A stretch of 64,000 nt of DNA, from contig CANREL010000004.1 of assembly GCA_947629655.1 (NCBI GenBank), positions 13,577 to 77,576 of the forward strand, read 5' to 3'. Of this stretch, positions 14,538 through 62,731 are shown in pieces. How positions within the stretch are numbered: position 1 is the first letter of the stretch; each line of letters opens with the position of its first letter. The DNA is from an uncultured Bacilli bacterium. GTDB lineage: Bacteria; Bacillota_I; Bacilli_A; RF39; UBA660. The position numbers and the translations under genes were made by a program. A model generated the notes under the pieces. That model searched no databases. It worked only from the letters and a program-made list of their open reading frames with translations, and was not told the origin of the DNA.

Positions 14538-14539
14538 TT

Positions 14540-15079: not shown

Positions 15080-15112
15080 AGAATAATCATTAATAATAAT
15101 ATTGGTGATTAT

Positions 15113-16985: not shown

Positions 16986-17007
16986 TATTTTATATTGAGG
17001 TGTTTTT

Positions 17008-18952: not shown

Positions 18953-19052
18953 AAAACCACGCCCCTAATTCTAATTATAAATATCTTTATTTTTTTGTCA
19001 AAGCAATTTTAAAATTTTATTAATAATATTATAATTAGATACATAGAATGGA

Positions 19053-20474: not shown

Positions 20475-20564
20475 TTTTTATAGTTATAAAATGATATGAG
20501 TTATGCAATTTATAATAATCATTAATAAAAATTATGTTATAATTTAATCGTTGGTGGTATTACT

Positions 20565-40069: not shown

Positions 40070-40426
40070 ATGAAAAATAAGCAAAGTGGTCAAGCATTAA
40101 TAGAATTTGTCATTATTTTACCAGTTGTGATCTTGCTTATTTTTTCTTTTGTAGATTTGGGTAGAATTGTTTTAGAAAATAATAGATTAGAGAATTTAAC
40201 TACGAGTGTTATTGAAAAATATAATGAGACTAAAAAATATGATGATGTCATTTCTTATATCGATTCATTAGGATATGAAAAAGTTGATTTATCTATTTCT
40301 GCACATGATGATATGTTGACGATTAAACTCACTGAAAAAATTGACTTAGTTACGCCAGGACTTTCAAAAATCATGGGTGATCCTTATAAAGTTGAAGTAG
40401 AGAGAGTTGTTAAATATGAAAAATGA
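40070..40426 (+). CDS. TadE-like pseudopilin
   Basis: N-terminus MKNKQSGQALIEFVIILPVVILLIF matches the TadE-type hydrophobic segment (G/xxxxE[FY]). I prefer the ATG at 40070 over the track start at 40043. Confidence 0.65.
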   Translation: MKNKQSGQALIEFVIILPVVILLIFSFVDLGRIVLENNRLENLTTSVIEKYNETKKYDDVISYIDSLGYEKVDLSISAHDDMLTIKLTEKIDLVTPGLSKIMGDPYKVEVERVVKYEK

Positions 40427-41192
40427 AAAAGGTCAAGTATTAGTTCTTTTCATAATGATTTTACCACTTCTATTATTAGGAGGAGCGTGTATCGTTGATT
40501 CTTCTTATATGTTATATCAAAAAAATCGTTTAGATAATATAAATCGTGATGTTTTGAATAGTGTCAATAATAGTTCTTCTTTGAGTGAAGAAGTAATTGA
40601 TGAAATAATTAGAGAAAATGATGCGAAAATTGTCAATGATGAGATATCGATTGATGAGAAAATTGTGATTAAAAATCATGTGATGGTCGATAGCCTATTT
40701 GGAAAGATAATAGGTATTGATAAATATAGAGTCAATTCAGAAGTCAGTGTAAAAGCTAAGAGATTGATATTAGATATCGATAGTTTAAAGAATATTGATA
40801 ATACTGGTAATTATTCAGTTATCAATAATAATGTCATTTATGATGGAGGATTAGTTTTTAAAGATTCTGATTTGGTGATTAATAATTTTAATATGAATGG
40901 TGACTTTGAGATAAATATTTCTTTTTCATTTGAAAAAAATGGTAATTTATTAGAATTCAATAATCTTTTGATAAATATTAGTAATGATGAATTATTCATA
41001 AATGGAAAAAGAGTTACTAGTTTAAAAATTGGTGAAAAATATGATTTAGTCATAACTAAAGATCGAGTTGTATTAAATGGTGATAGTTCAGTATCTTCTA
41101 ATGATATTGACAATTATTCTGGTGATTTGATCATTGGTAAGGGATTCAGTGGAAAAATAGAATTCATAAAAATATATAATATTGGAAATTAG
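40416..41192 (+). CDS. TadG/TadF-like pseudopilin with a C-terminal LamG-like (concanavalin-type) domain
   Basis: N-terminus MKNEKGQVLVLFIMILPLLLLGGACIVD. The C-terminus ends LIIGKGFSGKIEFIKIYN, which resembles the F-x-G-x-I-D-E-V-R-I-Y-N signature of LamG-like domains. Confidence 0.5.
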   Translation: MKNEKGQVLVLFIMILPLLLLGGACIVDSSYMLYQKNRLDNINRDVLNSVNNSSSLSEEVIDEIIRENDAKIVNDEISIDEKIVIKNHVMVDSLFGKIIGIDKYRVNSEVSVKAKRLILDIDSLKNIDNTGNYSVINNNVIYDGGLVFKDSDLVINNFNMNGDFEINISFSFEKNGNLLEFNNLLINISNDELFINGKRVTSLKIGEKYDLVITKDRVVLNGDSSVSSNDIDNYSGDLIIGKGFSGKIEFIKIYNIGN

Positions 41193-41200
41193 GTGAAAAT

Positions 41201-41974
41201 ATGGAAAGTAAAAAAGGTAAAATTCTTACGATTACATCAATGAAGGGTGGAGTTGGAAAAACGATGGTGACGATGCTTCTAGCTAATGTTTTTTCGAAAT
41301 GTGGTAAAAAAGTATTAGTTGTCGATTTGGATTTATACAATGGTAATTTAGCTTTTGCTTATAAAACTAGAGTAAAAAGTTCTATCTATAATTTGTGTGA
41401 TGACATAGCTAATAATCGTTTAGTCAATGGAATAACATCTGAATACGTTTCAAAGATAAGTGATAATTTATACTTTATCGCGGCACCTAAGGATCCACGT
41501 CAAGCTAATAAGATTGATAATAAATATCTCGATAGCATTTTGAAATCATTATCTTTTTTATACGATGTCATTTTAATCGATACTAATCATATATTAAGTG
41601 TTTCTAACATGGTCGCTTTTGAAAACAGTTATAAGATTGTTGACCTTGTCACCAATGACAGCTTTGATTTACAGAGTACGAAGAGTTTTGTGGCCATCTG
41701 TAAGAACATGGGTGTTGACAATTTAGTTTTGATGTTAAATAACGCCATTGATTCACGAAGAGGTTACTATACGACTTATGACATGAAAAATATTACGAAG
41801 AAGAATATTGATTATACAATTCCAAGCGCTTTCTATTTAAAGAATTTTGATCAGTTGGTAATGGATGGTAAGATTGGTTTCTTTGATGAATATTTAAAGG
41901 GTGAAGCTAAAAAGAGTTTGGAAGATTTTGCTGGTCACATGTTAAGTCTCATTGATGATGGAGGTAAGGAATAA
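41201..41974 (+). CDS. TadZ/CpaE-like ParA/MinD-family ATPase
   Basis: Deviant Walker A motif SMKGGVGKT and a DTNH Walker B-like motif. It sits immediately upstream of the CpaF ATPase. Confidence 0.7.
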   Translation: MESKKGKILTITSMKGGVGKTMVTMLLANVFSKCGKKVLVVDLDLYNGNLAFAYKTRVKSSIYNLCDDIANNRLVNGITSEYVSKISDNLYFIAAPKDPRQANKIDNKYLDSILKSLSFLYDVILIDTNHILSVSNMVAFENSYKIVDLVTNDSFDLQSTKSFVAICKNMGVDNLVLMLNNAIDSRRGYYTTYDMKNITKKNIDYTIPSAFYLKNFDQLVMDGKIGFFDEYLKGEAKKSLEDFAGHMLSLIDDGGKE

Positions 41975-43359
41975 TGAAGAAATCTAGTTGGTTAGAAGAA
42001 TTTGATGTAGTTGATCTATCTCCTAAAGTTGATACTCATGAATCTGATTATGAAGTGTTTGAAGATAAGAAGTTACTCGACAATTTTAGAAATAGTATCA
42101 TTCAGGAATTGATCGATAGTAATATAAGTGATAATAGTAATTTATCACAATACATAAATGAAGAAATAGACCGCATTACTGATGGATATGATTTGAGTGG
42201 TCAAGAGAGAAATTATCTTTTGAATTTGATTGAAAATGAAGTTAATGGTTATGGACCAATTACGGAGCTTTTGGATGATAAAAACGTTACAGAAATAATG
42301 ATAAATGGTCCAGATGAAATATATATTGAAGTCGATGGTGTTCTATCACGTGATAAAAGTGTTTCTTTTATCAATGCTGATCACATCATTCGAACTGTTC
42401 AAAGAATAATTCAACCCCTTGGTAGAACGATAGATTCCGCAAGTCCGATGGTCGATTCGCGACTTCCTGACGGTTCAAGAATTAATGCGATCATTCCACC
42501 ATTGTCTGTCAAAGGACCAGTGGTGACAATTCGTAAATTTAAAGATGATATCGACAATATCGATTCTCTAATTGGTAATGGAACACTAACACCTTATATG
42601 GCTAGATTTTTAGATGCCTGTGTCGATGCACGATTAAATATTTTGGTCTGTGGTGGTACTGGTAGTGGTAAGACGACACTTCTAAACGTCTTATCAAACT
42701 TTATCGGTAATGAAGAGAGAATAATCACGATTGAGGATGCTGTCGAATTGCGATTAAAACAAGATCATGTCATTTCACTTGAGACTAAAAGTACTAACTA
42801 TGATCAAGAAGGCGAAGTGACAATTCGTGATTTGGTCAGAAACTCATTACGTATGCGACCTGACCGCATAATTGTTGGTGAAGTTCGTGGTAAAGAAGCA
42901 TTTGATATGCTTCAAGCGATGAATACTGGTCATGATGGAAGTTTGACTACGTTGCATGCCAATGGTTGTAGAGACGCTTTAAATAGACTTGAAACGATGA
43001 TTTTAATGGGTGAGTTGGAACTTCCTATCAAAGCTATCCGCGGTTATATAGAAAGCGCAATTGATATCGTCATATCAGTTGAAAGATTGAGTGATGGTAA
43101 GAGAAAAGTTACATCAATATCAGAAATTGTCGGTTTTGATGGGGAAAACATTCAATTAAAAGAAATATTTGGTTTTATTAAACATGGATTGACGGAAAGT
43201 AAAGAGGTAAATGGAGAATTCATCCTATACGATTACGTTCCAGAAGTTTATGAAAAGATTAAGAGTCGTGGTATTAATACCATTGATGACATGTTTGTAA
43301 AAGAGGAAAAAAAGAAAAAAAGTTCAGTTAAAAAAACAACAAAAAAGACTAAAAAGTAG
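41974..43359 (+). CDS. tadA: Tad/Cpa secretion ATPase (TadA/CpaF family)
   Basis: Motifs VTEIMINGPDEIYIE, GGTGSGKTTLLN, RPDRIIVGEVRGKEAFDMLQAMNTGHDGSLTTLHAN. It ends in a K-rich C-terminal tail. Confidence 0.9.
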   Translation: MKKSSWLEEFDVVDLSPKVDTHESDYEVFEDKKLLDNFRNSIIQELIDSNISDNSNLSQYINEEIDRITDGYDLSGQERNYLLNLIENEVNGYGPITELLDDKNVTEIMINGPDEIYIEVDGVLSRDKSVSFINADHIIRTVQRIIQPLGRTIDSASPMVDSRLPDGSRINAIIPPLSVKGPVVTIRKFKDDIDNIDSLIGNGTLTPYMARFLDACVDARLNILVCGGTGSGKTTLLNVLSNFIGNEERIITIEDAVELRLKQDHVISLETKSTNYDQEGEVTIRDLVRNSLRMRPDRIIVGEVRGKEAFDMLQAMNTGHDGSLTTLHANGCRDALNRLETMILMGELELPIKAIRGYIESAIDIVISVERLSDGKRKVTSISEIVGFDGENIQLKEIFGFIKHGLTESKEVNGEFILYDYVPEVYEKIKSRGINTIDDMFVKEEKKKKSSVKKTTKKTKK

Positions 43360-43370
43360 GAAGTGATAAA

Positions 43371-44387
43371 ATGGATACAGCACTTGATATAATCATTTTT
43401 ATAATTCAAGTGATAACAGGATTTGTACTGTTGTACATCGCTTATCGTCTATTCAGATTTTATCGAACAGTAGGGTTTGATAAGCGCTTTGGACCTTATT
43501 CTGTCGAATTGTTAGAAGATGATAGTGAATCGTTTTTTGACATGGTCAGTTATTATTATGACAAAGTACAAAATTATCTTTCAAAGTCTTTGATAAAAAT
43601 AAAAATATTTGATAGTTATAGTAAAAAATATGAAAAGTATAGTTATGGAAAAAGAGTTAATGCGATAGATGATATGAATTATATATCGAAAAAGATATTC
43701 ATTGGTTTACTATGTGTATTTCTACTATTATTCTCTTGTATTTTTAGATATGTACACGTAAGTTTACTATCGATTTTATTAGCTTTCTTAGTAGGTTTTT
43801 TTGCTCTTGATGTCTATTTGATAATTTATGATAGAATGCGAAAAAACAGTATTGAAAAAGATATTAATAAAGCGGTCATCATCATGAATAATGCCTTTAA
43901 ATCAGGTTATAGTATCATGCAGGCAATATACCTTGTCCATACACAAATGGATGGGGCGATAAGTGAAGAATTTAGAAAGATGTACATCGATATTACTTTT
44001 GGGTTGAACATGGAAGTAGTCTTTAATCGTTTCGCTGATCGCGTTGATTGTGTTGAAGCTCGCTACATGGCTACATCTTTAGGTGTTGTCAATAGGACTG
44101 GTGGAAATATCATTCAAGTTTTTGATGCCGTTGAAAGAAATGCTACGACGAGGCAACGATTGAAAGAAGAACTTAGCAGTGTTTCAGCATCGGCTCGTGC
44201 TATGTTTAAGATTTTGGTATGCATTCCAATATTCATAATTGGTATTCTATTGATTTTAAATCCTACTTATTTTGCACCACTATTCAAAACACCAATAGGT
44301 ATTTTGTGTTTGTTATTGAGTGTGATCATATATGTTTTATACATCATCATCATTAGAAAAATTATATATGTGGAGGTTGATTTATGA
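43371..44387 (+). CDS. tadB: TadB-like platform protein (T2SS-F domain)
   Basis: Polytopic protein with a GspF-like cytoplasmic domain (MNNAFKSGYSIMQAIYLV...EEFRKMYIDITFGLNMEVVFNRFADRV). Confidence 0.75.
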   Translation: MDTALDIIIFIIQVITGFVLLYIAYRLFRFYRTVGFDKRFGPYSVELLEDDSESFFDMVSYYYDKVQNYLSKSLIKIKIFDSYSKKYEKYSYGKRVNAIDDMNYISKKIFIGLLCVFLLLFSCIFRYVHVSLLSILLAFLVGFFALDVYLIIYDRMRKNSIEKDINKAVIIMNNAFKSGYSIMQAIYLVHTQMDGAISEEFRKMYIDITFGLNMEVVFNRFADRVDCVEARYMATSLGVVNRTGGNIIQVFDAVERNATTRQRLKEELSSVSASARAMFKILVCIPIFIIGILLILNPTYFAPLFKTPIGILCLLLSVIIYVLYIIIIRKIIYVEVDL

Positions 44388-45097
44388 AAAAGGTAAAGAA
44401 TAAGAAAAGAACTCTTTCACGTAGTATTTTTTCTAAGAGACAAATCGATAGAATTCAAAGAAAAATCGATTTATTAGGTGAAAATAGTAAATTTGATGCG
44501 ATTTTCTTCTTAAATTTGCGCTTTATTTCTTCCATAGTTCTATTTTTAGTGGTATTATATGTATTTGAGTTGGGGTACTTCTTAGCACCACTAATCACGT
44601 TTATTTACTATTATTTAATTTACTATCTTTTAATTGAATACAATATAAATAAGAGATGTGATAAATTAGATGTTGAAGCGATGTATTTTTTTGAAGTTAT
44701 GACTTTGGCATTAGAATCTGGTAATAATTTAAAAAATGCTTTAGATATGACTTGTAGTAATGTGGACAATGAATTGTCTAGAGAATTTCGTAAAGCTCTT
44801 GATGAAGTTGATTACGGAAAGAGTTTGAATGAAGCTTTAGAGAGTTTGAAGCTTAGAATACCTTCGGATACAATTAACAATATTATTTTGAATATCATGC
44901 AATCTAATATTTTTGGTAATAATATAACTAATGATATGTACAATCAATTGGATTACATTAGAGATAGAGAAATTCAAAAAGCTAAGAGTAGAATTAGTAA
45001 AATACCTCTATACGTATCAGTCATTTCAGTCGTATTTTATGTACCTTTGATAATGTTGTTGATTTTATCACCAGTTATAATAGAATTTTTAAGTTAG
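44384..45097 (+). CDS. tadC: TadC-like platform protein (T2SS-F domain)
   Basis: Overlaps tadB by 4 nt. It has a GspF-like domain (LALESGNNLKNALDMT...REFRKALDEVDYGKSLNEALESL). Confidence 0.7.
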   Translation: MKKVKNKKRTLSRSIFSKRQIDRIQRKIDLLGENSKFDAIFFLNLRFISSIVLFLVVLYVFELGYFLAPLITFIYYYLIYYLLIEYNINKRCDKLDVEAMYFFEVMTLALESGNNLKNALDMTCSNVDNELSREFRKALDEVDYGKSLNEALESLKLRIPSDTINNIILNIMQSNIFGNNITNDMYNQLDYIRDREIQKAKSRISKIPLYVSVISVVFYVPLIMLLILSPVIIEFLS

Positions 45098-45877: not shown

Positions 45878-48800
45878 ATGAGCTATATAAAATCTTTTGA
45901 TGAAGAAGAATTTGAATCTTTAAAAGAGTATTGTCAAAAATATAGTTCTCAATATGGACTCAGTGCTCATGTCATGGAGTTATTAGATGAGAATGGACTT
46001 TATTATTTGAATAAATTTGTCAATGATGATGAAGATTTTGATGAACGTGATTTTGATACTTTAATAAGAGCTTTCTTTGATGGTTTTGATTTTTATTATG
46101 ATCGTTTAGATGATAATTATTTATTAGCGGCTAAAGAAAAATTAGAAGAGACTTTTTCATTCTTTGAAGATAGTCATTTAGATGATGAACACAAAAGTGA
46201 AATTGTCGATAATTTTTTTGAAATACTATCGAGTTATACGCGTGAAGAGTTGAGTGATAGTAAAGCTTTATACTATTTATTGACTTCTGATGTTTTTAGA
46301 AGGAGCAACATGGTTAAAGAATATTTGTACAATTCTTATAATTCGGTTGCTACTAGTAAAGAAAAGTTGGTCTTTTTTGTCAAAAATCTATATGATTTAT
46401 TGAACAAATTACCATATGAAGATGCTCACAAAGTCGATTATATATTTTTGAGTAGTTCTGATGCCTTCACTTATTTTTTAGATGTACCTGAAGAGATGAA
46501 TATCTTTTTTAATGAGAGAATTTTATCAAAATTTGGAAAAGAGACCTTGAGCTTTCTATTCAGAATGTCAGATTATTCTGTCTTCAGCAGTTTTTGTAGA
46601 TCTGATGATAAGTTTTTGTCTGTCGTAGCAGCTATGAATGAATACGTATTAAAAAAATATAATAAAAATTCTTATTTCTTTGATGGAGTTTTTAAATTTT
46701 TTAACAGATTTGAGAAAAAAGATATTAGAGCTAGAAAAATAATCATTGATCTATTCTCTGAATATTATGACAAATATTTTGAAGAAAGTAAAAAGAATGG
46801 TTTTGAAAACGATGAGATTTTTAATAATTTATTGGGATTAATTCTGCAACATCGTGATGTAATATATTTTTTGAATGAAAAAAATATTGAAAATTTAGAT
46901 GATTTCTTTAAAGCGACGAGAGAGAAAATAGATGAATTACACACGACTATATTTGGTAAGGAAGGTTTGGTCAAGTTTAAATATGGTGTCTTTGATCCAA
47001 AAAAAGATTTTCCACCTTTTGAGATGCGAGTACAGGGACTACACGATTTGAAAAATGCTTTCTTGCAAAGAGTTTATGGAATAACTTATGAAGATGCCTT
47101 TTATATCGCGTCAAAATATGGAACTTTTATCGAGCTATGTCAAGATGAAATAGCGGATGAAGATCGTGATGTTTATGAGATAGTTAAGACGATAACCGAT
47201 GTCGCTAATATGATTGATTACAATGGTAATAAAATAAATAATATTAGATTAGCTGCCCATGAATTTATTAAGAATAAGGGACTTTATAATTATAATAATG
47301 GGTCTTGTTATCCGATTCTATTATCATTGATTAATCGCATGTACATGCATGCATATAATGATTGTGTCTTTAAAGTTGATGAAAATTCTAAAGTTTTATA
47401 TCGTCAAAGAAAAGTTCCTGTAATTGATGCAGGAGTTAATTTCAACATGATTGTAAGTTCTATCAATGCTGTTGATGAGTTTTATACCAGTCGTGATAAC
47501 ATGATGGAGAAGTACAACATATCGAGTCGTTCCAATAATCAAGGAATTTGTGCAAGTTTTATCAATAATGAAAGTTTAGGAGTCATATCTTTACGCCAAC
47601 CATTAATTGGGTATGCCAATTTAGCTGATGACAGTTTGGATGCGATGGGAGTTGGTGATATATATTCCAAAACGATTGATTTAGATTTGTTGAGAGCTAA
47701 TTCTACAACTGGTGAGGGAAATTATTTCTTCACTCCTAAAAAATATATCGATTATACAAGATTTGGATATAACGAAATGGTCGTTGATCGCTTTTTGGTC
47801 AAAGATGATGACGATGCGATAAAAGTTCAACCGAGTTACATAGTTGTCTATAAAATAGATGACAATTATAAAAAGACTAGAATGTATAAAAAAGGAATAA
47901 GAATGGCTAGAGATTTTGGTGTTCCACTAGTCTTAGTTGACGTTCCAAAAGTTAAAGAAAATGAACGTGATATCATTCTTCAAAAAGAAAAAGAATTATT
48001 CAAAAGTAGTAAAGTCGATAAGGAATTATTAAATGAAATAGTAACGCGTTATATGAATAATTACAGTGGATCTTTAACGATTATGCGAAGTCGAAATCGC
48101 CGTGGAAATGAATGGCACTATCCAAAGGATTTCTCTGTGCGTGGTTTGACGAGATTTTTAGATAAAGTGGCTCGAAAGTTTGAAGATTTTGATGAAGCAC
48201 AAATAGAAGAGTGGAGTCAAGCTTTGAACGAAGTTTATAATTTAGAAAAAGAAAAGAACAAAATGGCTTTACAAATAAATGATTATGAGGATTCATTGAG
48301 TGGTGGAGAATTTTTACTCGATGATAAGATCATGTTTTCAGAATTTGTTCAAAATATCAAAGATCGCAATATCAATCGTCTTCTTCTCAGAAAGGGCATG
48401 TTTGATCAAGATAAATATTTACACATACCAGATGTCAAAGTACCAAGTGATGTCCAATTGATTGTCGATTTAGCAAACTTATTGTGTAAGAGTAAAGTTT
48501 ATGCCAATGTCAGTGGTCACAATGGGGAAAATATTTATCAGACGAAGAAGACTTATGATTATAGTGAAGAAGAAAAAAATGCTTATGGTCTCGTAATTTC
48601 TTATTTACTTGGGGACTATAGTACTAATTATTTTGCTAATCTCGATACTTGTGATATTACAAATATCAAAATTGATGAAAATATCCAACGCGTTGAGAGG
48701 TGCCTAGATGGCAATGATGCTTTTTCTAATCAGAATATCGATACAGAATTGTTATTAAAAGTTGCTACAGATATTGAAGATCTACCAACGGCAATCTTTT

Positions 48801-48958
48801 CTAAAGTGTTTAGACCATTCATTCAAGATTACAGTGCAAAGATGGGCGTTGCTCCAGATAAAGTACGCGATAATTTTCTTCGTAAGAAAGAACACATTTT
48901 TAGTGAGATGTCTAAATTTGCCCGTTCTGATAGAATTAATAAAGCAATTAGTAAATAA
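45878..48958 (+). CDS. large uncharacterised cytoplasmic protein, paralog A1 (1026 aa)
   Basis: RBS GGGTGGTGA. No signal peptide or TM helix. It has a helical N-terminal module, a conserved core (nt ~47410-48080) and a divergent C-terminal module, and is collinear with 53730-57098 and 57111-60092. Confidence 0.8.
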   Translation: MSYIKSFDEEEFESLKEYCQKYSSQYGLSAHVMELLDENGLYYLNKFVNDDEDFDERDFDTLIRAFFDGFDFYYDRLDDNYLLAAKEKLEETFSFFEDSHLDDEHKSEIVDNFFEILSSYTREELSDSKALYYLLTSDVFRRSNMVKEYLYNSYNSVATSKEKLVFFVKNLYDLLNKLPYEDAHKVDYIFLSSSDAFTYFLDVPEEMNIFFNERILSKFGKETLSFLFRMSDYSVFSSFCRSDDKFLSVVAAMNEYVLKKYNKNSYFFDGVFKFFNRFEKKDIRARKIIIDLFSEYYDKYFEESKKNGFENDEIFNNLLGLILQHRDVIYFLNEKNIENLDDFFKATREKIDELHTTIFGKEGLVKFKYGVFDPKKDFPPFEMRVQGLHDLKNAFLQRVYGITYEDAFYIASKYGTFIELCQDEIADEDRDVYEIVKTITDVANMIDYNGNKINNIRLAAHEFIKNKGLYNYNNGSCYPILLSLINRMYMHAYNDCVFKVDENSKVLYRQRKVPVIDAGVNFNMIVSSINAVDEFYTSRDNMMEKYNISSRSNNQGICASFINNESLGVISLRQPLIGYANLADDSLDAMGVGDIYSKTIDLDLLRANSTTGEGNYFFTPKKYIDYTRFGYNEMVVDRFLVKDDDDAIKVQPSYIVVYKIDDNYKKTRMYKKGIRMARDFGVPLVLVDVPKVKENERDIILQKEKELFKSSKVDKELLNEIVTRYMNNYSGSLTIMRSRNRRGNEWHYPKDFSVRGLTRFLDKVARKFEDFDEAQIEEWSQALNEVYNLEKEKNKMALQINDYEDSLSGGEFLLDDKIMFSEFVQNIKDRNINRLLLRKGMFDQDKYLHIPDVKVPSDVQLIVDLANLLCKSKVYANVSGHNGENIYQTKKTYDYSEEEKNAYGLVISYLLGDYSTNYFANLDTCDITNIKIDENIQRVERCLDGNDAFSNQNIDTELLLKVATDIEDLPTAIFSKVFRPFIQDYSAKMGVAPDKVRDNFLRKKEHIFSEMSKFARSDRINKAISK

Positions 48959-49058: not shown

Positions 49059-49877
49059 ATGGAAGATTTAGAAAAACTTGGAAAGTTTGAAACTTTACAT
49101 TTAGGTGGAACTGGTACTATGTACTTAGTACATGGGGAAACAAAAAATTACATTTATAAACCGGCTGAAAGTAAGTTCAGTCATCAAAAAGAACCTTTTA
49201 GAGGAATAGTTCAAGAATGTGCTTATGAATTACAAGAGATAGTTGATCCAGTTTCAGCGGTCGTATGTAGATATGTTGATGCGGGAAAGATTTGTGGATC
49301 TGTTCAGGAACTGATCGTCGTTGATAAAAATGCTCCTGACTATAGAGATATGCAATATGCTGGTCAAATACCTGAATTATCATCTTCAGAAGTTGATCAA
49401 TTCATGAGAGAATTTGTAACTGATTATTTATTGTACAATTATGATTCACACGGAAAAAATTTTATAACTGACCAACAGGGAATCATTAGAGGTATTGACA
49501 AAGAACAATCTTTTAGATACATGCGTGAAAAGAAAGCGCAAACACTTGATTTGTATTACTCACCTAATGCGGCTTATGGTGAAGCTGAACCAATATACAA
49601 TACTATTTTTAGAGCGTATCGCGATGGTAAATTAGACATTGATTACAGTGTCATCAGTGGATGCATGGATAGAGTTGAAGCAGTCAGTGAAGACAGATAT
49701 CGCGCCATATTCGCTCCTTATTGTGAAGCTTGTGGTAAAGCTTTTGGTCAAAATCCTAATGAGATGTTAGATCAGATTGTCGCAAGACGCAATACGATGC
49801 GTGAAAAAGTGGATACTTTCTTTCAGGGATTGACTGAGGAACGCGAAGTTAATTTGAGTTCAGGAAAGGGAAAATAA
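49059..49877 (+). CDS. minimal PI3K/PI4K-fold kinase (type II PI4K-like), substrate unknown
   Basis: Blocks are collinear with human PI4K2A as I recall it. GGTGTMYLV...IYKPAE matches GSSGSYFV...VFKPKNEE. GSVQELIVV matches GSFQLFVE. DYLLYNYDSHGKNFI matches DYIIRNTDRGNDNWLI. GIDKEQSF matches AIDNGLAF. Confidence 0.6.
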   Translation: MEDLEKLGKFETLHLGGTGTMYLVHGETKNYIYKPAESKFSHQKEPFRGIVQECAYELQEIVDPVSAVVCRYVDAGKICGSVQELIVVDKNAPDYRDMQYAGQIPELSSSEVDQFMREFVTDYLLYNYDSHGKNFITDQQGIIRGIDKEQSFRYMREKKAQTLDLYYSPNAAYGEAEPIYNTIFRAYRDGKLDIDYSVISGCMDRVEAVSEDRYRAIFAPYCEACGKAFGQNPNEMLDQIVARRNTMREKVDTFFQGLTEEREVNLSSGKGK

Positions 49878-49878
49878 T

Positions 49879-51147
49879 ATGTTAGATAGTGAGGATAAGA
49901 AGTATAATTTTCATTCTCATACTTTTAGATGTGGTCATGCTTCAAATCTTCCTGATTCCACTTATTTAAATGTGGCTTTAAATAACAACTATAATAAGTA
50001 TGGTATTACTGACCATGCGCCTGTTCATCCCATTTTTTATGGCGATTCCAAAATGCGCATGAATGATAGTGAGCGATATGAATATATAAATGCGATTAAC
50101 AATTTGAAAGTGATGTATGCTAAAGAACTAGAAGTCTTTTGCGGATTTGAAGCTGAGTATGACGAAATTATTGAAGAGTATCTATGCGATTTGCGCGATA
50201 GTGTCGATTACATGATTTTGGGACAACACTATGTCTTAAATAGAGATATTAGAAAAAGTCCCAATTATCCAATAGAGTATGCGAAAAAAGTTTGTAAAGG
50301 AATTGAGAGCGGTTTATTCGACATCGTTGCTCATCCTGATATCTTTATGAAATTTCGCACTTCTTTAAAAGATGATGATAGTAGAGAAACATTCATGAAA
50401 AATGCTTACTTAGCATCAAAAATGATTTGTGCTAAAGCAAAGGAATATAATGTACCGCTAGAATTAAATTTAGGAGGAGTCCACATCTTTCCTCGAAAGA
50501 GAATTGAAAGTTTAGATATTGCTCTACCAACTGATTTCTTTCAAGATGATGATGATATGGATTATATCGATTATCCAACAAATTTATTTTGGAATATAGC
50601 TATTGAAATGGGAAATAGTGCTGTCGTTGGAATCGATGCACATTTTCCAAATGAAATTGAAGATCGTGAAGAAAAATTAGAAAGAATTAATCGATATATT
50701 GATCTCTCTAAAATAAATTTTTTACCAAATTCTTATGATCCTGTTAAAGCACGTTTAAACAATCCCAAATTGGAAGAAGCATATCAAAAGACGAAGGACA
50801 GTTTAAATTCAGTTGAAGCGCGATTAATAGATGACATAGTTAGTAAGAGTCTTGAAAGTGATAAAGAAGTTAAGCGTCATTCTTTGGCAACACAAATATC
50901 ACGCAGTTTGAAGTCACCAACTCATATTAGAGCGGTTCCCTTTGGCAATGGTTTTCTAACTCAAGATCAAATATATGACGACATGACTAAAAGAAATAGA
51001 GATGAGTTAGCAATTGTCGCAAGAAATGGTATCATGAGAACAAAAAGTCGTGATAGTGATATTTTTAGAACAGAACTACTAAATGAAATAGATGCTTATT
51101 ACCGTCATCAAGAAGTTGTTAATAAAGAGATTAAAAAGAATAAATAA
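49879..51147 (+). CDS. PHP-domain phosphoesterase (HisJ/histidinol-phosphatase-like) with a ~130-aa C-terminal extension
   Basis: Metal-binding blocks FHSHTFRCGHA, GITDHAP, GFEAEY, ILGQHY, VAHPD and GIDAH. The ATG lies 1 nt after the kinase stop (TAAtATG). Confidence 0.8.
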   Translation: MLDSEDKKYNFHSHTFRCGHASNLPDSTYLNVALNNNYNKYGITDHAPVHPIFYGDSKMRMNDSERYEYINAINNLKVMYAKELEVFCGFEAEYDEIIEEYLCDLRDSVDYMILGQHYVLNRDIRKSPNYPIEYAKKVCKGIESGLFDIVAHPDIFMKFRTSLKDDDSRETFMKNAYLASKMICAKAKEYNVPLELNLGGVHIFPRKRIESLDIALPTDFFQDDDDMDYIDYPTNLFWNIAIEMGNSAVVGIDAHFPNEIEDREEKLERINRYIDLSKINFLPNSYDPVKARLNNPKLEEAYQKTKDSLNSVEARLIDDIVSKSLESDKEVKRHSLATQISRSLKSPTHIRAVPFGNGFLTQDQIYDDMTKRNRDELAIVARNGIMRTKSRDSDIFRTELLNEIDAYYRHQEVVNKEIKKNK

Positions 51148-51210: not shown

Positions 51211-52503
51211 GTGAAAAAGATGGTTAATGTGTCAAATAAAAAGATATTATCGCTAACGCTTAATGAACTTATTAATATATCTTTAGATGATACTTTAGTC
51301 ATGTTGAATAATGATTTGACCAAAGTGGATAAGTATAGTTCTGATTATGCTTTATCAATCGCATCAGCTATCGTAAAAAGAATATTTTTAATTAAGAATT
51401 TTGCCCATCAATATGATAAATTTTATAAAATAATAACTTCTAATGAATTTAGAAATAATAAATATATTTATAGTGCTTTAAAAGATGAAAATACAACGCT
51501 TAGTGATTTGTTAGACGTCTATGATGATGCTGAAGAATTGACTAGTCTCATCGATGCCATTCTCATGAAAAATGAAAAGATGTTTGATGAATTAGTCTAT
51601 GGTCAATACAATGTACGTGAATTGTTTTCTTTAGAATTTGTCAATAAATTTAATCATAATTCTTTTAAAAGAATTTTATCTTTTTTGTTGAAAGATAGTG
51701 ATAGAAAAAGAGTTGTTAAAGCTCTATTCAAAAATAAGAATAATAAATTCATATACATGGTATCAAAAATGGATGATGTCGTTTTACAATACAGTAAAGA
51801 TGATACGAGTTATTTAGATGCCGTTTTAGTCATGTTAAATTACAACAATTATCGTCATCTCTTATGGGATTATTACAATAAATATATTGGTAATATAGAA
51901 AATGAGAATCTTATGAACAGTCCAGAATATCGTAAAGAAGTACCTGATGAGTTAAAAGAATTATTAAATTATACTTTTGCACTGATGGATTATAAGTATT
52001 TAAATGACAAAGTTCCTGAGATAATATCTAGTATCGATGAGTTGATAAGTTCTTTAAATGAAGGAAAAGATATGGTTCATACTACTGTTTTTGGGGTCAG
52101 TGGTTATGAAAAGGTCAAGAATGAAAGTTTTGATATCTTATTTGATTTTCCAAAGATGGATGATGAAAATAAATTGTTGAATTTAAAGATTGCTTTTTTT
52201 AGTAATATATATGGTATAACTTATGATCAAGCAGGGAAAATAATTGATAATTTTGATGATTTTATGAAAGATTTTGATGGATCTTTTGATAAAAAAGATC
52301 AATTGATATATGAGACAGTGATAGCGATGAAGTCTTTATATGATTTAAAGTTAGATGATAAAGATGGAATTGATCTATATCGTGAAGTATATTATAAATA
52401 TGTTAAAAAGAATGGATTATATGCTCCCGTTGAGTTATCAGCGGCAATCATGATGGAAGAGTTGATGCATAGAATGTATGAGAATTCTATAGAAATAATC
52501 TAG
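51211..52503 (+). CDS. paralog A4: N-terminal module only (430 aa) of the large protein family
   Basis: Collinear with the N-terminal ~500 aa of A1-A3 (for example TTVFGVSGYEKVKN...NIYGITYDQAGKII...YKYVKKNGLY...LMHRMYENS). It ends just before the position of the conserved core. The start is GTG 51211 or ATG 51220. Confidence 0.75.
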   Translation: MKKMVNVSNKKILSLTLNELINISLDDTLVMLNNDLTKVDKYSSDYALSIASAIVKRIFLIKNFAHQYDKFYKIITSNEFRNNKYIYSALKDENTTLSDLLDVYDDAEELTSLIDAILMKNEKMFDELVYGQYNVRELFSLEFVNKFNHNSFKRILSFLLKDSDRKRVVKALFKNKNNKFIYMVSKMDDVVLQYSKDDTSYLDAVLVMLNYNNYRHLLWDYYNKYIGNIENENLMNSPEYRKEVPDELKELLNYTFALMDYKYLNDKVPEIISSIDELISSLNEGKDMVHTTVFGVSGYEKVKNESFDILFDFPKMDDENKLLNLKIAFFSNIYGITYDQAGKIIDNFDDFMKDFDGSFDKKDQLIYETVIAMKSLYDLKLDDKDGIDLYREVYYKYVKKNGLYAPVELSAAIMMEELMHRMYENSIEII

Positions 52504-52537: not shown

Positions 52538-53641
52538 ATGAGTGAAATTTATAAAGACAATGAAAGAGTAGATGAAAGAGAAGCAGAAAAGAATTCTATT
52601 TTGGATGATTACTTAAAAGACGTTGGGCCAATTTCAAAATTTATTAATGAGGGCTTTGAAGAGATTGATAGGGATCTTGGCGTTCAAGATGGTGTTTTAG
52701 GATTTGCGGTAGGAGATGCTTTGGGTGTCCCTGTTGAATTTTCAAGACGTGAAACTTTGATAGATAGACCAGTTGTTGATATGATGGAGTATGGTGTTCA
52801 CAATCAACCAAAGGGAACTTGGAGTGATGATACTTCAATGATGATTGCTACAATGGATGCCATTATCAATAGTTCAAAGATTGATTATCACAAGATAGCT
52901 GATAATTTTTGCCTTTGGGCTAGCAGTAGAAAGTTTAATCCTCATGGTAAATTGTTTGACATTGGAATTACGACGAGTGATGCTCTTAAGCGTTACATGT
53001 TTGAAGGATGTGAGCCTACAAAAGCTGGCAATAAAGGTTATTATGACAATGGTAATGGTTCACTAATGCGCATTTTACCTTTGGCATATTACTTTAATAG
53101 TAATAAGATGTCCGATGAAGAGATGGCTACTATCATCAATAATGTCTCATCAATAACGCATGCTCATCCAATCAGTTGTATGGGATGTTATCTATACGTA
53201 AAATATGCCATGGATTTATTAGATGGAAAAGATTTCAATGAGGCTTATCAAGATCTACTAAGATGTGATGTATCAATGTATGATAATGATACAGTCAAAG
53301 CTTATGGTCGTATTTTAAGTGGTGAACTTGGACAAATAAAGGATCAAAATAAGATTAAATCTAGTGGCTTTGTCGTCGATTCTTTAGAGGCATCTATTTG
53401 GTGTTGCTTAAATAGTGATAATTATAAAGTTGCGACTTTGAAAGCTGTCAATCTTGGCGATGATACCGATACGGTTGGAGGATTGACAGGAGGATTAGCG
53501 GGTATTAAATATGGACGTGAAAGTATTCCTAAGAATTGGGTCGATTCTTTAGCACAAAAAGATTATTTAGTCGAGTTGTGTGATGAATATCAAAAAACGA
53601 TAAAAAAAACAGCAAATTTGAATAAAATTAGACATGTTTAA
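52538..53641 (+). CDS. ADP-ribosylglycohydrolase (ARH/DraG family) with a ~47-aa N-terminal leader
   Basis: Motifs GFAVGDALGVPVEF, WSDDTSM, GNGSLMR and LGDDTDTVGGLTGGLAG, so the metal-binding acidic residues are present. RBS AGGAGG. Confidence 0.9.
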   Translation: MSEIYKDNERVDEREAEKNSILDDYLKDVGPISKFINEGFEEIDRDLGVQDGVLGFAVGDALGVPVEFSRRETLIDRPVVDMMEYGVHNQPKGTWSDDTSMMIATMDAIINSSKIDYHKIADNFCLWASSRKFNPHGKLFDIGITTSDALKRYMFEGCEPTKAGNKGYYDNGNGSLMRILPLAYYFNSNKMSDEEMATIINNVSSITHAHPISCMGCYLYVKYAMDLLDGKDFNEAYQDLLRCDVSMYDNDTVKAYGRILSGELGQIKDQNKIKSSGFVVDSLEASIWCCLNSDNYKVATLKAVNLGDDTDTVGGLTGGLAGIKYGRESIPKNWVDSLAQKDYLVELCDEYQKTIKKTANLNKIRHV

Positions 53642-53729: not shown

Positions 53730-56700
53730 ATGGATGATCAAAGTATTGATAATGATTCTTTCTTGGAAGAAGATGATTTATATAGTGCAGTTGTAAACTC
53801 AGATGAAGAATTCGATGATGAGGATTTAGAAGATACACTTGATTTAGGTCTCTTTTCTAAAAATGATATGGACGAATCACCTAGTTTTGACGATGAAGAA
53901 GACTTACCGGAATTAGATAGTGATACTTTAAATGATCCTTTTCAAGATCCCTTTGATTCATCTTTGAGTAAAAGTTTCTTTCCACAGATGCAGGCCGTTT
54001 TAAAAAAGAGTGAAGCTATTGCTGTTAAACCAAGTATTTTAGATAAAAAAATTGTTGAATTAGAATCTATTCCCATTCAGGAATTGAGTGAAAAATTACT
54101 TGAAGAGATTAGAAGTTTAGAAAGTGAGACACCAGAATTTAGAAATGCACAATTACAAAGTATTTTTTCAAGAATATTAGAATTTCAACCAGTCAATAAG
54201 GCCGGTTCAACAAATGATTCGCATTTTGAAAAATATGAACAGAGATTGTTTACTGATCTAGTAAGTGCGATTGGCCTTTCCGATATCGATTTTGTCAAAG
54301 ACTTTTTAAAGTCAAGTTTTAAGTACGGCGGAAATAGTAGTAAAGTTCAACAGCGAAAATTATTATTACAAGTATTCGATTATTATGATACTCATTCTGA
54401 AGATGCCATTGAAAAATTCAATTACATATTTAGAAGTAGTGAAGCTATAGGTATAATGTTACTTGATGAACCAGAACTTTTAAAGACGCAATATTTTTCT
54501 AATCGTGTCATGGAACTATTTAGTAAAGAAAGTTTATCGCAACTTTATAGATTTAAATTTGTGATGGGTTATCAAGAGTTGGAGAATTTAGTCAAAGAAG
54601 AAAATGCTAAAGCTCTTTTTGTCGTTTCCCAAATGTGTAATTATAGTACCAATGTCATCGGTCATGATTTTGAATTCATGTCAGCTGTTTTTAAACAAAT
54701 TTCAACAAATCCAAAATTTTTTCAGTTGTTGAGTGATTCTTATGATTCTTTAGTTCATGGTGATGAAAAAGCTCATATGGCCAAAAAGGAATTAGAACCC
54801 GAATTTCGTAAATTGATGAATTATATATTGAATCAGTCATATGATAAAAGAGCGCTTGGTAGAAGTGACCATAGTAATATTTCAACACTTGCTGATTTTA
54901 TGAAATATGTTTCTAAACAGAGTGAAGAATTTCATGATTATGTCGTTAGACCTGGTACTTTATCAAAGATAGAAGATGAAACTTTTGATCCTGAAAATGA
55001 TTTCTTGAAAATTACTGATAAACAAGATTTACAAAATTTTAAACGTGGTATATTGATGGGAATTTATGGTATAAGTTTTGAAGAAGCTAAACATTACGTA
55101 TCACAATATGGTCAATACATGGAAGCTTTGGAAAAAGGAATTGTCGATGAAGATAAAGAAATTCTTCAGGTTTTAAAATCCATATGTTCAATTGTCAAAC
55201 TAGATGAAACTGATCAAAATTTTGAATCAAAAATTAGTCAGTTACAAACTGCTTATGCATATCAGATTAAGAAAAATGGACCTTATTTCCAAGATAAATA
55301 CGTTTCGACGATGATTCTTCAAGGTTTATTCAATAGAATGATAATGAATACTTATAACAAGAGAAATCTTTTAGCTTCCAGTTGTGAAGAACTTGGACGT
55401 GATGACGATGTAGTCTTGTTGGATGCGGGATATGATTTTGATATGGTAGTAACGTCTTTTAGTGGCGTTGAGAGTTTTTATCAATCTGGAGTTAATATGG
55501 CTAGTAAGTGGAATACGGCAGCTCTATCAGAAGGTCAAGGTCTTTGTGTATCACATATTTCTTCTCAAAATTTAGGAGTAATTTCTTTACAATCTCCAAT
55601 TATTGGATTTAGTAAGATTCCACAATACGCTTTAGATAGTATGGGACCAAATGATATATTCACTAATATCTCCAGTTATAATTTGCGCATGTTAAATGAA
55701 AATCGTGGTCGTGTTCAAAATCGTTTTTTCATTCCAGCTAATGTCATGTCTGATGAACAGCGATATGGTTATAATGAGATTTTGCTTGAAAGATTTTTAT
55801 CACAAGATGAAAAAGGCGATATCAAAATACAACCTAGTTATGTGGTATGTTATAAGATGAATGAAAATTATAAACAGTCTTTAAATTATAAACAATCTTT
55901 GAAAGTAGCTAAAGACTTTGGCATTCCAATGGTTGTCGTCGATGTCATGAAGATTAAGGAAAAAGAACAAAGTATCATCGAAGAACAACAACAACAATTG
56001 TTGAGTAGTGAAAAAGTCGATCTTGCAATGATGCATGATATTGTGACGCGATATATGAATAATTATACGGGATCTTTGACCATGTGTTGGGAGAATCAAT
56101 CTGATTGGCGCTATAGAGAAGATTTCTCAGTACCGGGAATGCGTAATTTTTTTGATGAAGTATTTCGAAAAATTTCCAGTATTGATGATGAAAATTTACA
56201 AAAAGAGTGGTTGGATGCTTTAGAATTCGCTTATCGTGATGAAAAGAGAAAGAATGATTCTGCTCATAAAGTTAGCAGTTATAAAGGATCAGTTCGAGGA
56301 TTTATTTTTGATCGTGATATGGAGAGTGGTGGATTTGATCTGTTGACTAGAATTACTGATGCAAGAAATGGAAAGTTCACTTATGCAAGCGAAGTGTATG
56401 TGGAAGATGAACCAACTGCTGATTTAGGTATTGTAACGCAAGTTAAAGTTACTAAAGTCATGTTATCGGATGGTGTCACAGAAGGTATTTTTGTCACTCC
56501 ACAAGAACTTAAAGAGGAAGATATTGCCATTATCAGTCTAACTAATGCGATGGAGATGGGTTCAACTTTTGACCTTGAAGATTATTCTCTAAATGGAGTT
56601 GATGGTTTTGCCATAAAATATAATGAGGTAGAAGATCAAGATGTTGTCGCAGCTGAAAATTTAGTCGTAAGTTATCTATTTGCCAATTTTGAAAGTGCCT

Positions 56701-57098
56701 TTATTGAAGATGTAGGTTTTGATCTCGGTAAGAAAGTGGCTGATGAATATGAATTGAATTTGGAACCAAACTATGACGTCACCTACAAATTTGATAACTC
56801 ATTATATAGTTCGGTATTCAATAAGAATTCGGAGAATCATCTCGATTTCAACCACGATATAATGGATAAGTACATCACTAAGATAGAGACGATGGACGAT
56901 AAAGATTTCTTAAAGATATTTACGCCAGTAATAGATAAAAAAGCAAGTGCTCTACAAAAGAGTCAAGAAGAGATAGGTGCCATTCTATTGGATCGCAAAG
57001 CCAATATTCGTTCACAATTCAACAACTTAGAACAGCACATCGCTATTGTTAATGGTGAAGCAGTAGACGTTATCAGTGATCATTTATCAACAAAGTAA
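53730..57098 (+). CDS. large uncharacterised cytoplasmic protein, paralog A2 (1122 aa) with an acidic N-terminal tail
   Basis: The first ~80 aa are D/E-rich. The rest is collinear with A1 and A3. The conserved core lies at nt ~55410-56085. Confidence 0.8.
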   Translation: MDDQSIDNDSFLEEDDLYSAVVNSDEEFDDEDLEDTLDLGLFSKNDMDESPSFDDEEDLPELDSDTLNDPFQDPFDSSLSKSFFPQMQAVLKKSEAIAVKPSILDKKIVELESIPIQELSEKLLEEIRSLESETPEFRNAQLQSIFSRILEFQPVNKAGSTNDSHFEKYEQRLFTDLVSAIGLSDIDFVKDFLKSSFKYGGNSSKVQQRKLLLQVFDYYDTHSEDAIEKFNYIFRSSEAIGIMLLDEPELLKTQYFSNRVMELFSKESLSQLYRFKFVMGYQELENLVKEENAKALFVVSQMCNYSTNVIGHDFEFMSAVFKQISTNPKFFQLLSDSYDSLVHGDEKAHMAKKELEPEFRKLMNYILNQSYDKRALGRSDHSNISTLADFMKYVSKQSEEFHDYVVRPGTLSKIEDETFDPENDFLKITDKQDLQNFKRGILMGIYGISFEEAKHYVSQYGQYMEALEKGIVDEDKEILQVLKSICSIVKLDETDQNFESKISQLQTAYAYQIKKNGPYFQDKYVSTMILQGLFNRMIMNTYNKRNLLASSCEELGRDDDVVLLDAGYDFDMVVTSFSGVESFYQSGVNMASKWNTAALSEGQGLCVSHISSQNLGVISLQSPIIGFSKIPQYALDSMGPNDIFTNISSYNLRMLNENRGRVQNRFFIPANVMSDEQRYGYNEILLERFLSQDEKGDIKIQPSYVVCYKMNENYKQSLNYKQSLKVAKDFGIPMVVVDVMKIKEKEQSIIEEQQQQLLSSEKVDLAMMHDIVTRYMNNYTGSLTMCWENQSDWRYREDFSVPGMRNFFDEVFRKISSIDDENLQKEWLDALEFAYRDEKRKNDSAHKVSSYKGSVRGFIFDRDMESGGFDLLTRITDARNGKFTYASEVYVEDEPTADLGIVTQVKVTKVMLSDGVTEGIFVTPQELKEEDIAIISLTNAMEMGSTFDLEDYSLNGVDGFAIKYNEVEDQDVVAAENLVVSYLFANFESAFIEDVGFDLGKKVADEYELNLEPNYDVTYKFDNSLYSSVFNKNSENHLDFNHDIMDKYITKIETMDDKDFLKIFTPVIDKKASALQKSQEEIGAILLDRKANIRSQFNNLEQHIAIVNGEAVDVISDHLSTK

Positions 57099-60096: not shown

Positions 60097-60309
60097 ATGA
60101 AAGCAAGTGAATTGAGAAGAATTGTTGAAGAAAAAAAGGGTGTTAACAATGAGAGAAGTACTAGTAGTATTTCTAATTTAGATGATGATTATGGAAGTTA
60201 TCATGAGACTATTCTCAATAATTATTTAGAGGATGTCGGTGCTATTTCTAAATATATTAATGATGGATTAAAAGAAGTAGAAAAAAATAAGAATTTACCA
60301 AACGTTTAG
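60097..60309 (+). CDS. 70-aa protein homologous to the N-terminal leader of the ADP-ribosylglycohydrolase
   Basis: ATG lies 4 nt after the A3 stop and has an AGGAAAG RBS. TILNNYLEDVGAISKYINDGLKEVEKN aligns with ARH SILDDYLKDVGPISKFINEGFEEIDRD (14/27 identical, the rest mostly conservative). Confidence 0.6.
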   Translation: MKASELRRIVEEKKGVNNERSTSSISNLDDDYGSYHETILNNYLEDVGAISKYINDGLKEVEKNKNLPNV

Positions 60310-61699: not shown

Positions 61700-62731
61700 A
61701 TGATGAAGAAAGTATTTTTATTAATAGTTGCTCTTTTACTACTTGGACCTTTAGGAGTAAGTGCGGCTAGTCCCAGTGTCAGCAATTTGAGTGTTACTGG
61801 TGATAGTAGTGGCGAAGTTGGTAAAGCTTTAACAGTAAATGTTGACATAAAGTTTTCTAATATAAGTGAATTAGGTGTTAAACTTATCGACTTAGAATTC
61901 AATTTTGATGATGCATATCTTGAAGTTGTCAACATTTCTTCTAGTAATTATTCTTCAGAAGTATATGAAGAAAATGGTAAGTATTATATTCGTGCTAATT
62001 CGATGGCTAAAAATCTTGAAAGTTATAGTGCTAAGGTAATTTTTAAGCCTAAGAAGGCCGTTGATAATACTACGATTAAAACAGGTAGTATCGTTGCGGA
62101 ATTCATGCCAAAGAGAGATGGGGATGGATTGTACATCGAAAATGAAAGTGATAAGGTTAGAATTAAAACGTCTCTAGTTAAGACGAAGAGTATTTCTGTT
62201 AAGAGTTCAAGTACTAGTAATACTAGTGATAGTAAGACTGGTAGTAGTTCTACTAGTAAAGGAAGCAGTTCTTCATCACCAAGTGATAAAAAAGTAAATA
62301 TAGATGATGGTAAATCAAATAATAATTATTTGAAGAATTTAAGTATTGAAAACTATGATATTAAGTTTGATAAAGAAAAACACGTTTATGAAGTTGAAGT
62401 AAAAAAAGATGTCAATACGATTAATTTAAAAGTTGAACCCGAAGACAGTAAAGCTACTTATGATGTAGAAGGTGCTGATGATTTAAAGAAGAATGACTAC
62501 AAAGTAACAGTTAAAGTAACAGCGGAGAATGGAGATGTCAACACTTATATAGTCAATGTCAAAAATGATCAAGCAGTTGAGGTAAAAGATGATAAAGATG
62601 GTAAAATTCCAACAAAATATTTCATCATTGGTGGGATTGTGGCAGCGATCATCATCATTGTTATCATCATTATATATTTCATAGCCCATGGAAAAGATCG
62701 CAAATTAGAAAAGTCTTTGGATGAGATGTAA
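61700..62731 (+). CDS. surface protein: signal peptide, cohesin-like domain, S/T-rich linker, cadherin-like beta-sandwich repeat, C-terminal TM anchor
   Basis: Signal peptide (VSA/A), an S-rich linker, the repeat NNYLKNLSIENYDIKFDKEKHVYEVEV, and a TM helix (IIGGIVAAIIIIVIIIIYF). It is a shorter paralog of 27466-29100. Confidence 0.6.
   Translation: MMKKVFLLIVALLLLGPLGVSAASPSVSNLSVTGDSSGEVGKALTVNVDIKFSNISELGVKLIDLEFNFDDAYLEVVNISSSNYSSEVYEENGKYYIRANSMAKNLESYSAKVIFKPKKAVDNTTIKTGSIVAEFMPKRDGDGLYIENESDKVRIKTSLVKTKSISVKSSSTSNTSDSKTGSSSTSKGSSSSSPSDKKVNIDDGKSNNNYLKNLSIENYDIKFDKEKHVYEVEVKKDVNTINLKVEPEDSKATYDVEGADDLKKNDYKVTVKVTAENGDVNTYIVNVKNDQAVEVKDDKDGKIPTKYFIIGGIVAAIIIIVIIIIYFIAHGKDRKLEKSLDEM

Follow-up and report, generated by a model that had tools for sequence, protein, structure and literature searches.

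What is done by the conserved central part of three large paralogous proteins that no database annotates? The proteins, here called A1, A2 and A3, are encoded in a stretch of 64,000 nucleotides (the window) from an uncultured Bacilli bacterium (RF39; UBA660), assembly GCA_947629655.1, contig CANREL010000004.1, positions 13,577-77,576 of the forward strand. The window is bacterial chromosomal DNA of about 30% GC with nearly all genes on the plus strand. The three genes are part of a tight cluster, all in one direction, that is flanked by yebC and pyrH, in the order A1, K272, PHP, N430, ARH, A2, A3 and s70, where PHP stands for a PHP-domain phosphoesterase and ARH for an ADP-ribosylglycohydrolase. 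Searches with the full A1-A3 proteins in Pfam, NCBIfam, PADLOC and the PDB sequences gave no match. The part that the three proteins share, the core, is a genuine enzyme-like domain, widespread and so far without annotation. As for its chemistry, we tentatively favour a very divergent effector domain that resembles ADP-ribosyltransferases (ARTs) and uses NAD+, with glutamate E633 (A1 numbering) as the key residue.

The first-pass annotation of the window, which was made from the letters alone, had described a core with eight motif blocks separated by variable loops. A MAFFT alignment confirmed the core and recovered all eight blocks in all three proteins where they had been placed; in A1 DAGVNFNM lies at nucleotides 47426-47449, QGICAS at 47540-47557, RFGYNE at 47759-47776 and RYMNN at 48047-48061. 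The flanks had been called far more diverged, and they are. Pairwise identity is 45-49% in the core (amino acids 512-735 of A1) versus 17-31% in the flanks, with 20-31% for the N-terminal 340 amino acids and 17-27% for the C-terminal 235. The box drawn around the core, 47410-48080, lies within it, but the conserved unit is larger and takes in a module of about 150 amino acids before the box (called N2 below) and two conserved helices after it. The conservation among the paralogs goes far beyond chance, since relatives were retrieved with a core profile at E down to 1e-163.

At E ≤ 1e-3 the profile search returned 602 cluster representatives, of which 453 were still retrieved at E ≤ 1e-10, each representing a cluster at 50% identity and measuring from 300 to 3240 amino acids. 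They originate mostly from AT-rich human gut and rumen metagenomes. A metagenome scan added 68 family loci with 22-32% GC, many of them in gut or rumen assemblies according to the record names. A3 was identical to a protein in the searched collection (P0002). An orphan-family impression given by a word-indexed search, with 1 and 9 matches, was dismissed as an artefact; these matches were short proteins only, from split genes of proteins of about 690 amino acids. The core domain always comes with the N2 module ahead. This module, with the motif K.A.L..IYGI....A, is present in A1-A3 and in N430 and its orthologs; of the 150 listed representatives, 67 had a detectable copy. In 66 of 149 representatives the stretch after the core is shorter than 150 residues. 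One protein of 3240 amino acids (P0077) carries two copies of the core, approximately at amino acids 2121-2403 and 2890-3207. Pfam searches with 21 distant members found HD domains outside the core only, a census of weak Pfam and PHROGs matches over 34 diverse cores gave no recurring family and no PHROG, and tblastn of one family member against plasmid and phage collections gave no match.

Residue conservation was scored on 135 diverse cores, in A1 numbering, whose members are only 21-40% identical overall. E633 was kept in 135 of 135. It was followed by P652 and P683 (99%), F522 (97%, 131/135), R638 and D594 (96%), R628 (95%), Y654 and I562 (93%), E696 and N728 (92%), and N632, N727 and S560 (90%; S560 in 121/135). 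The triplet at 631-633 reads Y/H-N-E in 117 of the 135. The motifs found in the three paralogs do not dissolve among wider homologs, and the early suggestion that the core is enzymatic or ligand-binding gains support from E633 together with ten further residues each kept at 90% or above. That an invariant E633 and near-invariant Arg, Asp and Asn persist at such low identity is one reason for reading the core as an enzyme-like domain.

Profile searching and structure prediction had been proposed early on as means to place the core. The former delivered the relatives above and the latter a confident model; a match to Pfam or the PDB came from neither. A first AlphaFold2 model, built with 4 sequences, was too poor (predicted local distance difference test, pLDDT, 57.6) and was discarded. 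The model built with 34 diverse sequences reached a pLDDT of 86.2 and a predicted template modelling score of 0.87. Its elements are one long helix, a part rich in beta structure, a beta-alpha-beta unit and again long helices. C558 (model residue 87) was placed in the middle of strand 85-92, with local pLDDT of about 81-95, and E633 (model residue 162) at the start of strand 162-166. D594 comes after model strand 116-120, and residues 598-623 form a helical insertion of low confidence.

Within this model two motifs resemble those of ARTs. The triplet at 558-560 reads CTS in 47, CCS in 32, CAS in 11 and STS in 7 of the 135 cores, so that a [C/S]-[T/C/A/S]-S sequence stands inside predicted strand 85-92, as the S-T-S element does in ARTs; the core string ICTSYI can be compared with YVSTSP of the ART at a metagenome locus described below (L061) and YISTSL of C3. 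Around E633 the core reads [Y/H]-N-E-h-h-h-[E/D]-R at 631-638, where h is hydrophobic, and in C3, C2I and the L061 ART a Glu likewise opens a strand and is followed by h-h-h-x-R (core HNEMVLER, L061 ART ENEFLLAR, C3 QLEVLLPR). CteC is a cholera-toxin-like mono-ART of the R-S-E (ARTC) clade, its three residues being R65, S97 and E220; the nicotinamide ribose is held by D134 and E220, both of them essential (PMC10810742). Between its two motifs the core has a conserved Asp, D594, like D134 of CteC. The order and spacing run in parallel: F522, S560 (+38), D594 (+34) and E633 (+39, past the insertion) in the core, and R65, S97 (+32), D134 (+37) and E220 in CteC (PDB 8ux2). The first-pass annotation could not place an ART triad. 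This holds for the first-position Arg or His, but once homologs and model are at hand the other two R-S-E elements find a place in the expected order and strand context. Beyond what ARTs have, the core carries the beta-alpha-beta unit P683...D688..K691....E696, a helix with N727-N728, and the preceding N2 module.

The second line of evidence comes from L061 (metagenome, 4163-20572), a locus of a type VII secretion system of the T7SSb kind. It encodes EssC, which carries FtsK_SpoIIIE and FHA domains, together with a YukD-like protein and DUF4176 (9.5e-23), the last known to act as chaperone for LXG toxins of T7SSb systems (PMC12478183, PMC12482557). Two adjacent proteins of this locus are 98% identical over residues 1-682. 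The one of 991 amino acids ends in a C3/C2I-like ART (phmmer 6e-7 to C3 in the PDB) and is followed by an ARH gene. The product of this gene is similar to the window ARH (E 1.8e-95), and the gene is the probable immunity gene of the C3-like ART toxin. The other, of 2278 amino acids, ends in N2 plus core, the core at amino acids 1943-2228. Because the 98%-identical N-terminal region is joined to either, the core is an alternative payload to the ART in a polymorphic toxin. A further protein (P0125) shares the N-terminal region of the L061 toxins and has the N2-plus-core unit as its C-terminal payload. An LXG domain was not recognised by Pfam in the N-terminal region shared by the L061 proteins.

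The third line concerns kinase-like and phosphoesterase partners. In K272 the motifs LGGTG, YKPA, CNFDSHGxNF and GIDKEQSF are intact, and they are invariant in an alignment of 5 orthologs. Its Pfam matches are weak (HipA_C E 0.016, PI3_PI4_kinase E 0.0011); the D-x-H-x-x-N loop, the downstream Asp, the Gly-rich loop and the Lys of HipA and PI3/PI4 kinases are all present. Matches of K272 to Bcl-xL in the PDB were judged spurious. The K272 family comprises small HipA/PI3K-like kinases for which Pfam has no model. Relatives occur in other arrangements, following an HD domain (P0224), behind an N-terminus with a signal peptide (P0212), and behind a C3-like ART (P0206; ADPrib_exo_Tox, 25.1 bits, over the gathering score). 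The C-terminal ~190 amino acids of A1-A3 align with K272 over 185 columns (hhalign probability 95.5%, E 1.4e-8), but they lack the kinase residues named above, the D-x-H-x-x-N catalytic loop among them. Since these C-terminal domains are degenerate K272-like ones, A1-A3 are built as core plus kinase-like domain, in parallel to the ART plus kinase-like domain of P0206. The core thus takes the place of a canonical ART in two architectures, the L061 toxin pair and the kinase-like fusions.

Of 150 representatives, 28 carry an HD domain fused behind the core, as do 38 of 70 metagenome members. The clade of the window has no HD domain fused to the core and has the PHP phosphoesterase in the operon instead, and the core seems to be coupled to a metal-dependent phosphoesterase. 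The PHP protein matches Pfam PHP at 2.7e-8 and has an extension of ~200 amino acids without a family match; it is probably not an enzyme of histidine biosynthesis, as its NCBIfam scores against the HisJ family (histidinol-phosphatase) fall under the cutoffs. The window ARH was recognised by Pfam ADP_ribosyl_GH (8.9e-67) and by NCBIfam Tri1 (1.2e-53, under its cutoff), and may pair with the core proteins; a canonical ART domain was not found in the window. Taken together, the ARH in the operon, the payload that replaces an ART and the ART position beside a kinase-like domain form an ADP-ribosyl context that points toward ART.

The same cluster order recurs in four metagenome-assembled genomes (MAGs) of uncultured Bacilli/Bacillota, which stem from rabbit, goat and a further source; one of the four carries at least six paralogs. 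The A1-A3 genes are syntenic chromosomal orthologs and not cassettes. Identity between the genomes is 89-92% for YebC, 60-69% for ARH, 47-62% for K272 and about 50% for PHP, and 30-43% for the orthologs of A1-A3; such fast divergence in comparison with YebC is typical of conflict or effector genes. The ARH gene is conserved in the operon, and the PHP gene is kept there in three of the four MAGs and was not found in locus L003. N430 always precedes the ARH gene. Its orthologs occur in three MAGs at 48-59% identity, for which reason we regard it as a maintained gene and not as a fragment or truncation remnant. Orthologs of s70 come after the last large paralog, A3-type in L004 and A2-type in L006, and upstream of pyrH. 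In MAG RGIG3038 a module of the s70 type forms a separate open reading frame (ORF) ahead of ARH (L005, 4913-5128). The module shared by s70 and the N-terminal extension of ARH may be a docking module.

There are, on the other side, a number of observations that speak against an ART-like, NAD+-using effector. The first-position Arg of ARTs (His in the H-Y-E clade), which contacts NAD+ from the first strand, is missing; F522 is conserved at this place, ahead of the strand (131/135), and the next position is variable. A histidine at 527 occurs in only 53 of 135 members, the window proteins having S or T. Two residues before E633, where ARTs of the [Q/E]-x-E type have Q or E, the core has Tyr or His in 127/135; Gln does not occur there and Glu occurs in a single sequence. 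No ART family appeared among the Pfam matches of 34 members at E up to 10; hhalign of the core against a small profile of C3, C2I and the L061 ART was negative (probability 0.4%), as was a PDB profile search with the core, and no sequence-level link to ARTs was found in Pfam, NCBIfam, PADLOC or PHROGs. Foldseek searches of the model against the PDB and BFVD returned nothing significant. An ARH gene is nearby in only 1 of 68 wider-family loci, where it belongs to the canonical ART. Directly after the core-bearing toxin of L061 no immunity-like gene follows; DUF4176 and then the next toxin do. As to export, A1-A3 lack a recognisable signal, and queries with the EssC, YukD-like, DUF4176 and toxin proteins of L061 found no type VII secretion genes in the window. 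Because the first Arg/His is missing, the -2 residue is Y or H and the profile comparison was negative, membership of the core in the ART superfamily is not established, and we speak of a resemblance.

These negative results leave room for other enzymes. The strongest competitor is a new enzyme domain of other chemistry, a nucleotidyl- or phosphotransferase or a hydrolase of nucleotides or nucleic-acid ends, working with HD/PHP and kinase-like partners, in which case the CteC match would be fold-level noise. It would account for the failure of every ART test at the sequence level, for a set of conserved polar residues much larger than a minimal ART would require (K691, E696, N727/N728, W546-N547), for the recurrent HD fusion and the operon with PHP and a kinase-like protein, and for the G-I-x-x-x-x-A pattern of N2, which resembles a helix-hairpin-helix (HhH) motif and goes along with a weak Ogg-HhH match of A3 (E 0.04). 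We nevertheless consider it somewhat unlikely, for the match to an ATP-grasp-like family was at E 0.2 only, and two independent architectures put the core where a canonical ART sits. Nucleases are the commonest payloads of polymorphic toxins (PMC3482391), and a toxin domain of the PD-(D/E)xK type could be read from the P-[Y/W]-D594 motif as 'PD' and the invariant strand Glu E633 as the acidic residue of the second motif, with the HhH-like module ahead of the core. Foldseek indeed listed TnsA and VRR-NUC proteins, but at the noise level (E 0.9-5, probability ≤ 0.12). Moreover, there is no Lys at +2 from E633, the residues after E633 are hydrophobic, and 39 residues with helices separate D594 from E633, which makes such a nuclease quite improbable.

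The first-pass annotation had also seen in the G-x-C-x-x-F context a reminder of papain- and transglutaminase-like nucleophiles, and C558 could serve as nucleophile of a Cys/Ser hydrolase or transglutaminase. The Cys noted as the single invariant one is, over full length, truly the sole Cys common to the three paralogs (A1 C558, A2 C606, A3 C526), but in the wider family the position is C in 114 (84%) and S in 21 (16%) of 135; Ser, the sole replacement, is an alternative nucleophile, and one member has a weak Pfam match to the papain-like toxin family Tox-PLDMTX (E 0.043). In papain and transglutaminase folds the nucleophile sits at the N-terminus of a helix, whereas C558 lies inside a predicted strand; the Tox-PLDMTX match occurs in 1 of 34 members, and S560, two positions further on, shows the stronger conservation. 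A Cys-His dyad had been doubted already, and rightly so: among 135 members no His column reaches 75%, and the sole invariant His of the paralogs, H355, lies outside the core. With a Cys in a strand that alternates with Ser and no conserved His, the papain/transglutaminase idea was rejected, and a Cys or Ser nucleophile in general is very improbable. A non-catalytic binding or scaffold domain, finally, with conservation due to protein-protein or ligand binding, would agree with large multi-domain proteins that meet no known catalytic signature in full and with the degenerate, probably inactive kinase-like domain of A1-A3. An invariant Glu with near-invariant Arg, Asp and Asn at 21-40% identity would be unusual in a scaffold, and the core serves as C-terminal payload of a T7SS polymorphic toxin, so we find this improbable as well.

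Returning to the ART-like reading, the core would be the catalytic domain of an undescribed family of soluble enzyme-like effectors, with an ART fold that uses NAD+. The [C/S]-[T/C/A]-S sequence (A1 558-560) would correspond to the S-T-S element, and Cys558 would be a small strand residue interchangeable with Ser and not a thiol nucleophile. Glu633 would be the counterpart of the catalytic Glu at the strand start, and D594, R628 and R638 could hold the ribose and the phosphates in replacement of the missing first-position Arg/His. The operon would then possess a possible eraser for each chemistry, with ARH removing an ADP-ribose-type modification written by the core, and PHP paired with the active K272 kinase. 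The ART fold, the use of NAD+, the roles of single residues and this writer/eraser logic are inferred. A bolder version, which we regard as rather unlikely, would have the core found a new NAD+-using clade or a new fold with [C/S]xS, D594, R628, N632-E633 and R638 as active site. Together with a phosphoesterase (HD/PHP) and a kinase-fold partner it would install a modification undescribed in bacteria, for instance a SidE-like phosphoribosyl-type linkage, and be used both as a T7SS payload and in a chromosomal multi-paralog writer/eraser system of gut Bacilli.

The family matters in any case, as neither protein-family nor structure databases annotate its some 600 cluster representatives, with proteins up to 3240 amino acids. 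Should the ART-like reading hold, the ART superfamily would gain a clade that lacks the canonical first catalytic residue, and type VII secretion toxins would gain a new payload. In the conserved operon a candidate transferase is combined with an ADP-ribosylhydrolase, a phosphoesterase and a protein of the kinase-like type, which makes a putative writer/eraser system open to direct testing. If the reading is wrong, a strongly conserved enzyme-like module is still left, with E633, R628, R638 and D594 as active-site candidates.

The coordinates of the cluster are compiled in Table 1.

Table 1. Genes of the cluster and sub-features of A1, in window coordinates
Feature	Position	Strand	Description
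A1	45878-48958	+	Intact ORF, 1026 amino acids
A1, layout from N- to C-terminus			Helical N-terminal region, N2 module, conserved core, degenerate kinase-like C-terminal domain
A1, N2 module	46898-47305	+	About amino acids 341-476; motif K.A.L..IYGI....A; always ahead of core
A1, conserved core	47306-48250	+	Amino acids 477-791; beta-rich part at 506-688 plus conserved helices
A1, Cys558 codon	47549-47551	+	Opens strand motif [C/S]-x-S
A1, Glu633 codon	47774-47776	+	E of GYNE; candidate catalytic residue; sole family residue with 100% invariance
A1, C-terminal domain	48383-48946	+	About amino acids 836-1023; degenerate K272 homolog
K272	49059-49877	+	Small HipA / PI3-PI4-kinase-like protein, 272 amino acids
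PHP	49879-51147	+	PHP-domain (HisJ-like) phosphoesterase; C-terminal extension of ~200 amino acids
N430	51211-52503	+	Paralog of the N-terminal half of A1-A3; stops at the first helix of the core
ARH	52538-53641	+	ADP-ribosylglycohydrolase (DraG/Tri1-like); N-terminal extension of ~50 amino acids (52538-52690)
A2	53730-57098	+	Intact ORF, 1122 amino acids; core 55290-56255; Cys606 codon 55545-55547; Glu683 codon 55776-55778
A3	57111-60092	+	Intact ORF, 993 amino acids; core 58428-59381; Cys526 codon 58686-58688; Glu598 codon 58902-58904
s70	60097-60309	+	70-amino-acid ORF; homologous to the N-terminal extension of ARH

No terminator-like sites were seen between the cluster genes in a promoter and terminator scan, which was otherwise uninformative. 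Transmembrane segments or signal peptides were found in none of the cluster proteins, A1 included. Directly upstream of yebC lies a Tad/Flp-type pilus operon (window 40407-45097), syntenic in the related MAGs, which encodes TadE/G-like proteins, a ParA/MinD-like ATPase, a CpaF-type T2SSE ATPase and two T2SSF proteins. At 61700-62731 the window encodes a surface protein. It has a signal peptide, domains of the cohesin and cadherin-like types, a linker rich in Ser and a transmembrane anchor at the C-terminus.

Around the 68 metagenome loci of the wider family the neighbourhoods mostly reflected lineage synteny (ABC transporter, tRNA-editing protein and others), and no general ARH, macro or NUDIX partner emerged from this census. 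One synteny recurred in L051, L056, L059, L062 and L066, with the family gene at about 7.7-11.8 kb. It comprises RibD_C, a nucleoside 2-deoxyribosyltransferase-like protein, a type I phosphodiesterase / nucleotide pyrophosphatase, a C-terminally membrane-anchored protein of 317 amino acids without known function, the family protein with HD, and an ABC transporter. A second synteny (L052, L054, L078) likewise has the 317-amino-acid protein ahead of the family gene.

Compared with known systems, the L061 member has the payload architecture of T7SSb LXG-type toxins, whereas A1-A3 differ from it in having another N-terminal region. The genes directly downstream of A1, A2 and A3 are K272, A3 and s70, respectively, and an immunity gene in the position usual for toxins was not found among them. 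The Tre1-Tri1 pair of the Serratia type VI secretion system and the DraT-DraG pairs likewise join a transferase with a DraG/Tri1-like ARH, as the operon in the window does with its candidate transferase. Unlike in those pairs, the window ARH is not directly downstream of any core protein; it comes after N430 and has an extra N-terminal module shared with s70. The SidE-type effectors of Legionella contain an ART-type domain and a phosphodiesterase, and SidJ is their kinase-fold regulator. As an analogy of architecture only, with no sequence relationship, the core, its phosphoesterase or phosphohydrolase (HD/PHP) and its kinase-like partner make up a similar combination of ART-type domain, phosphodiesterase and kinase-fold protein.

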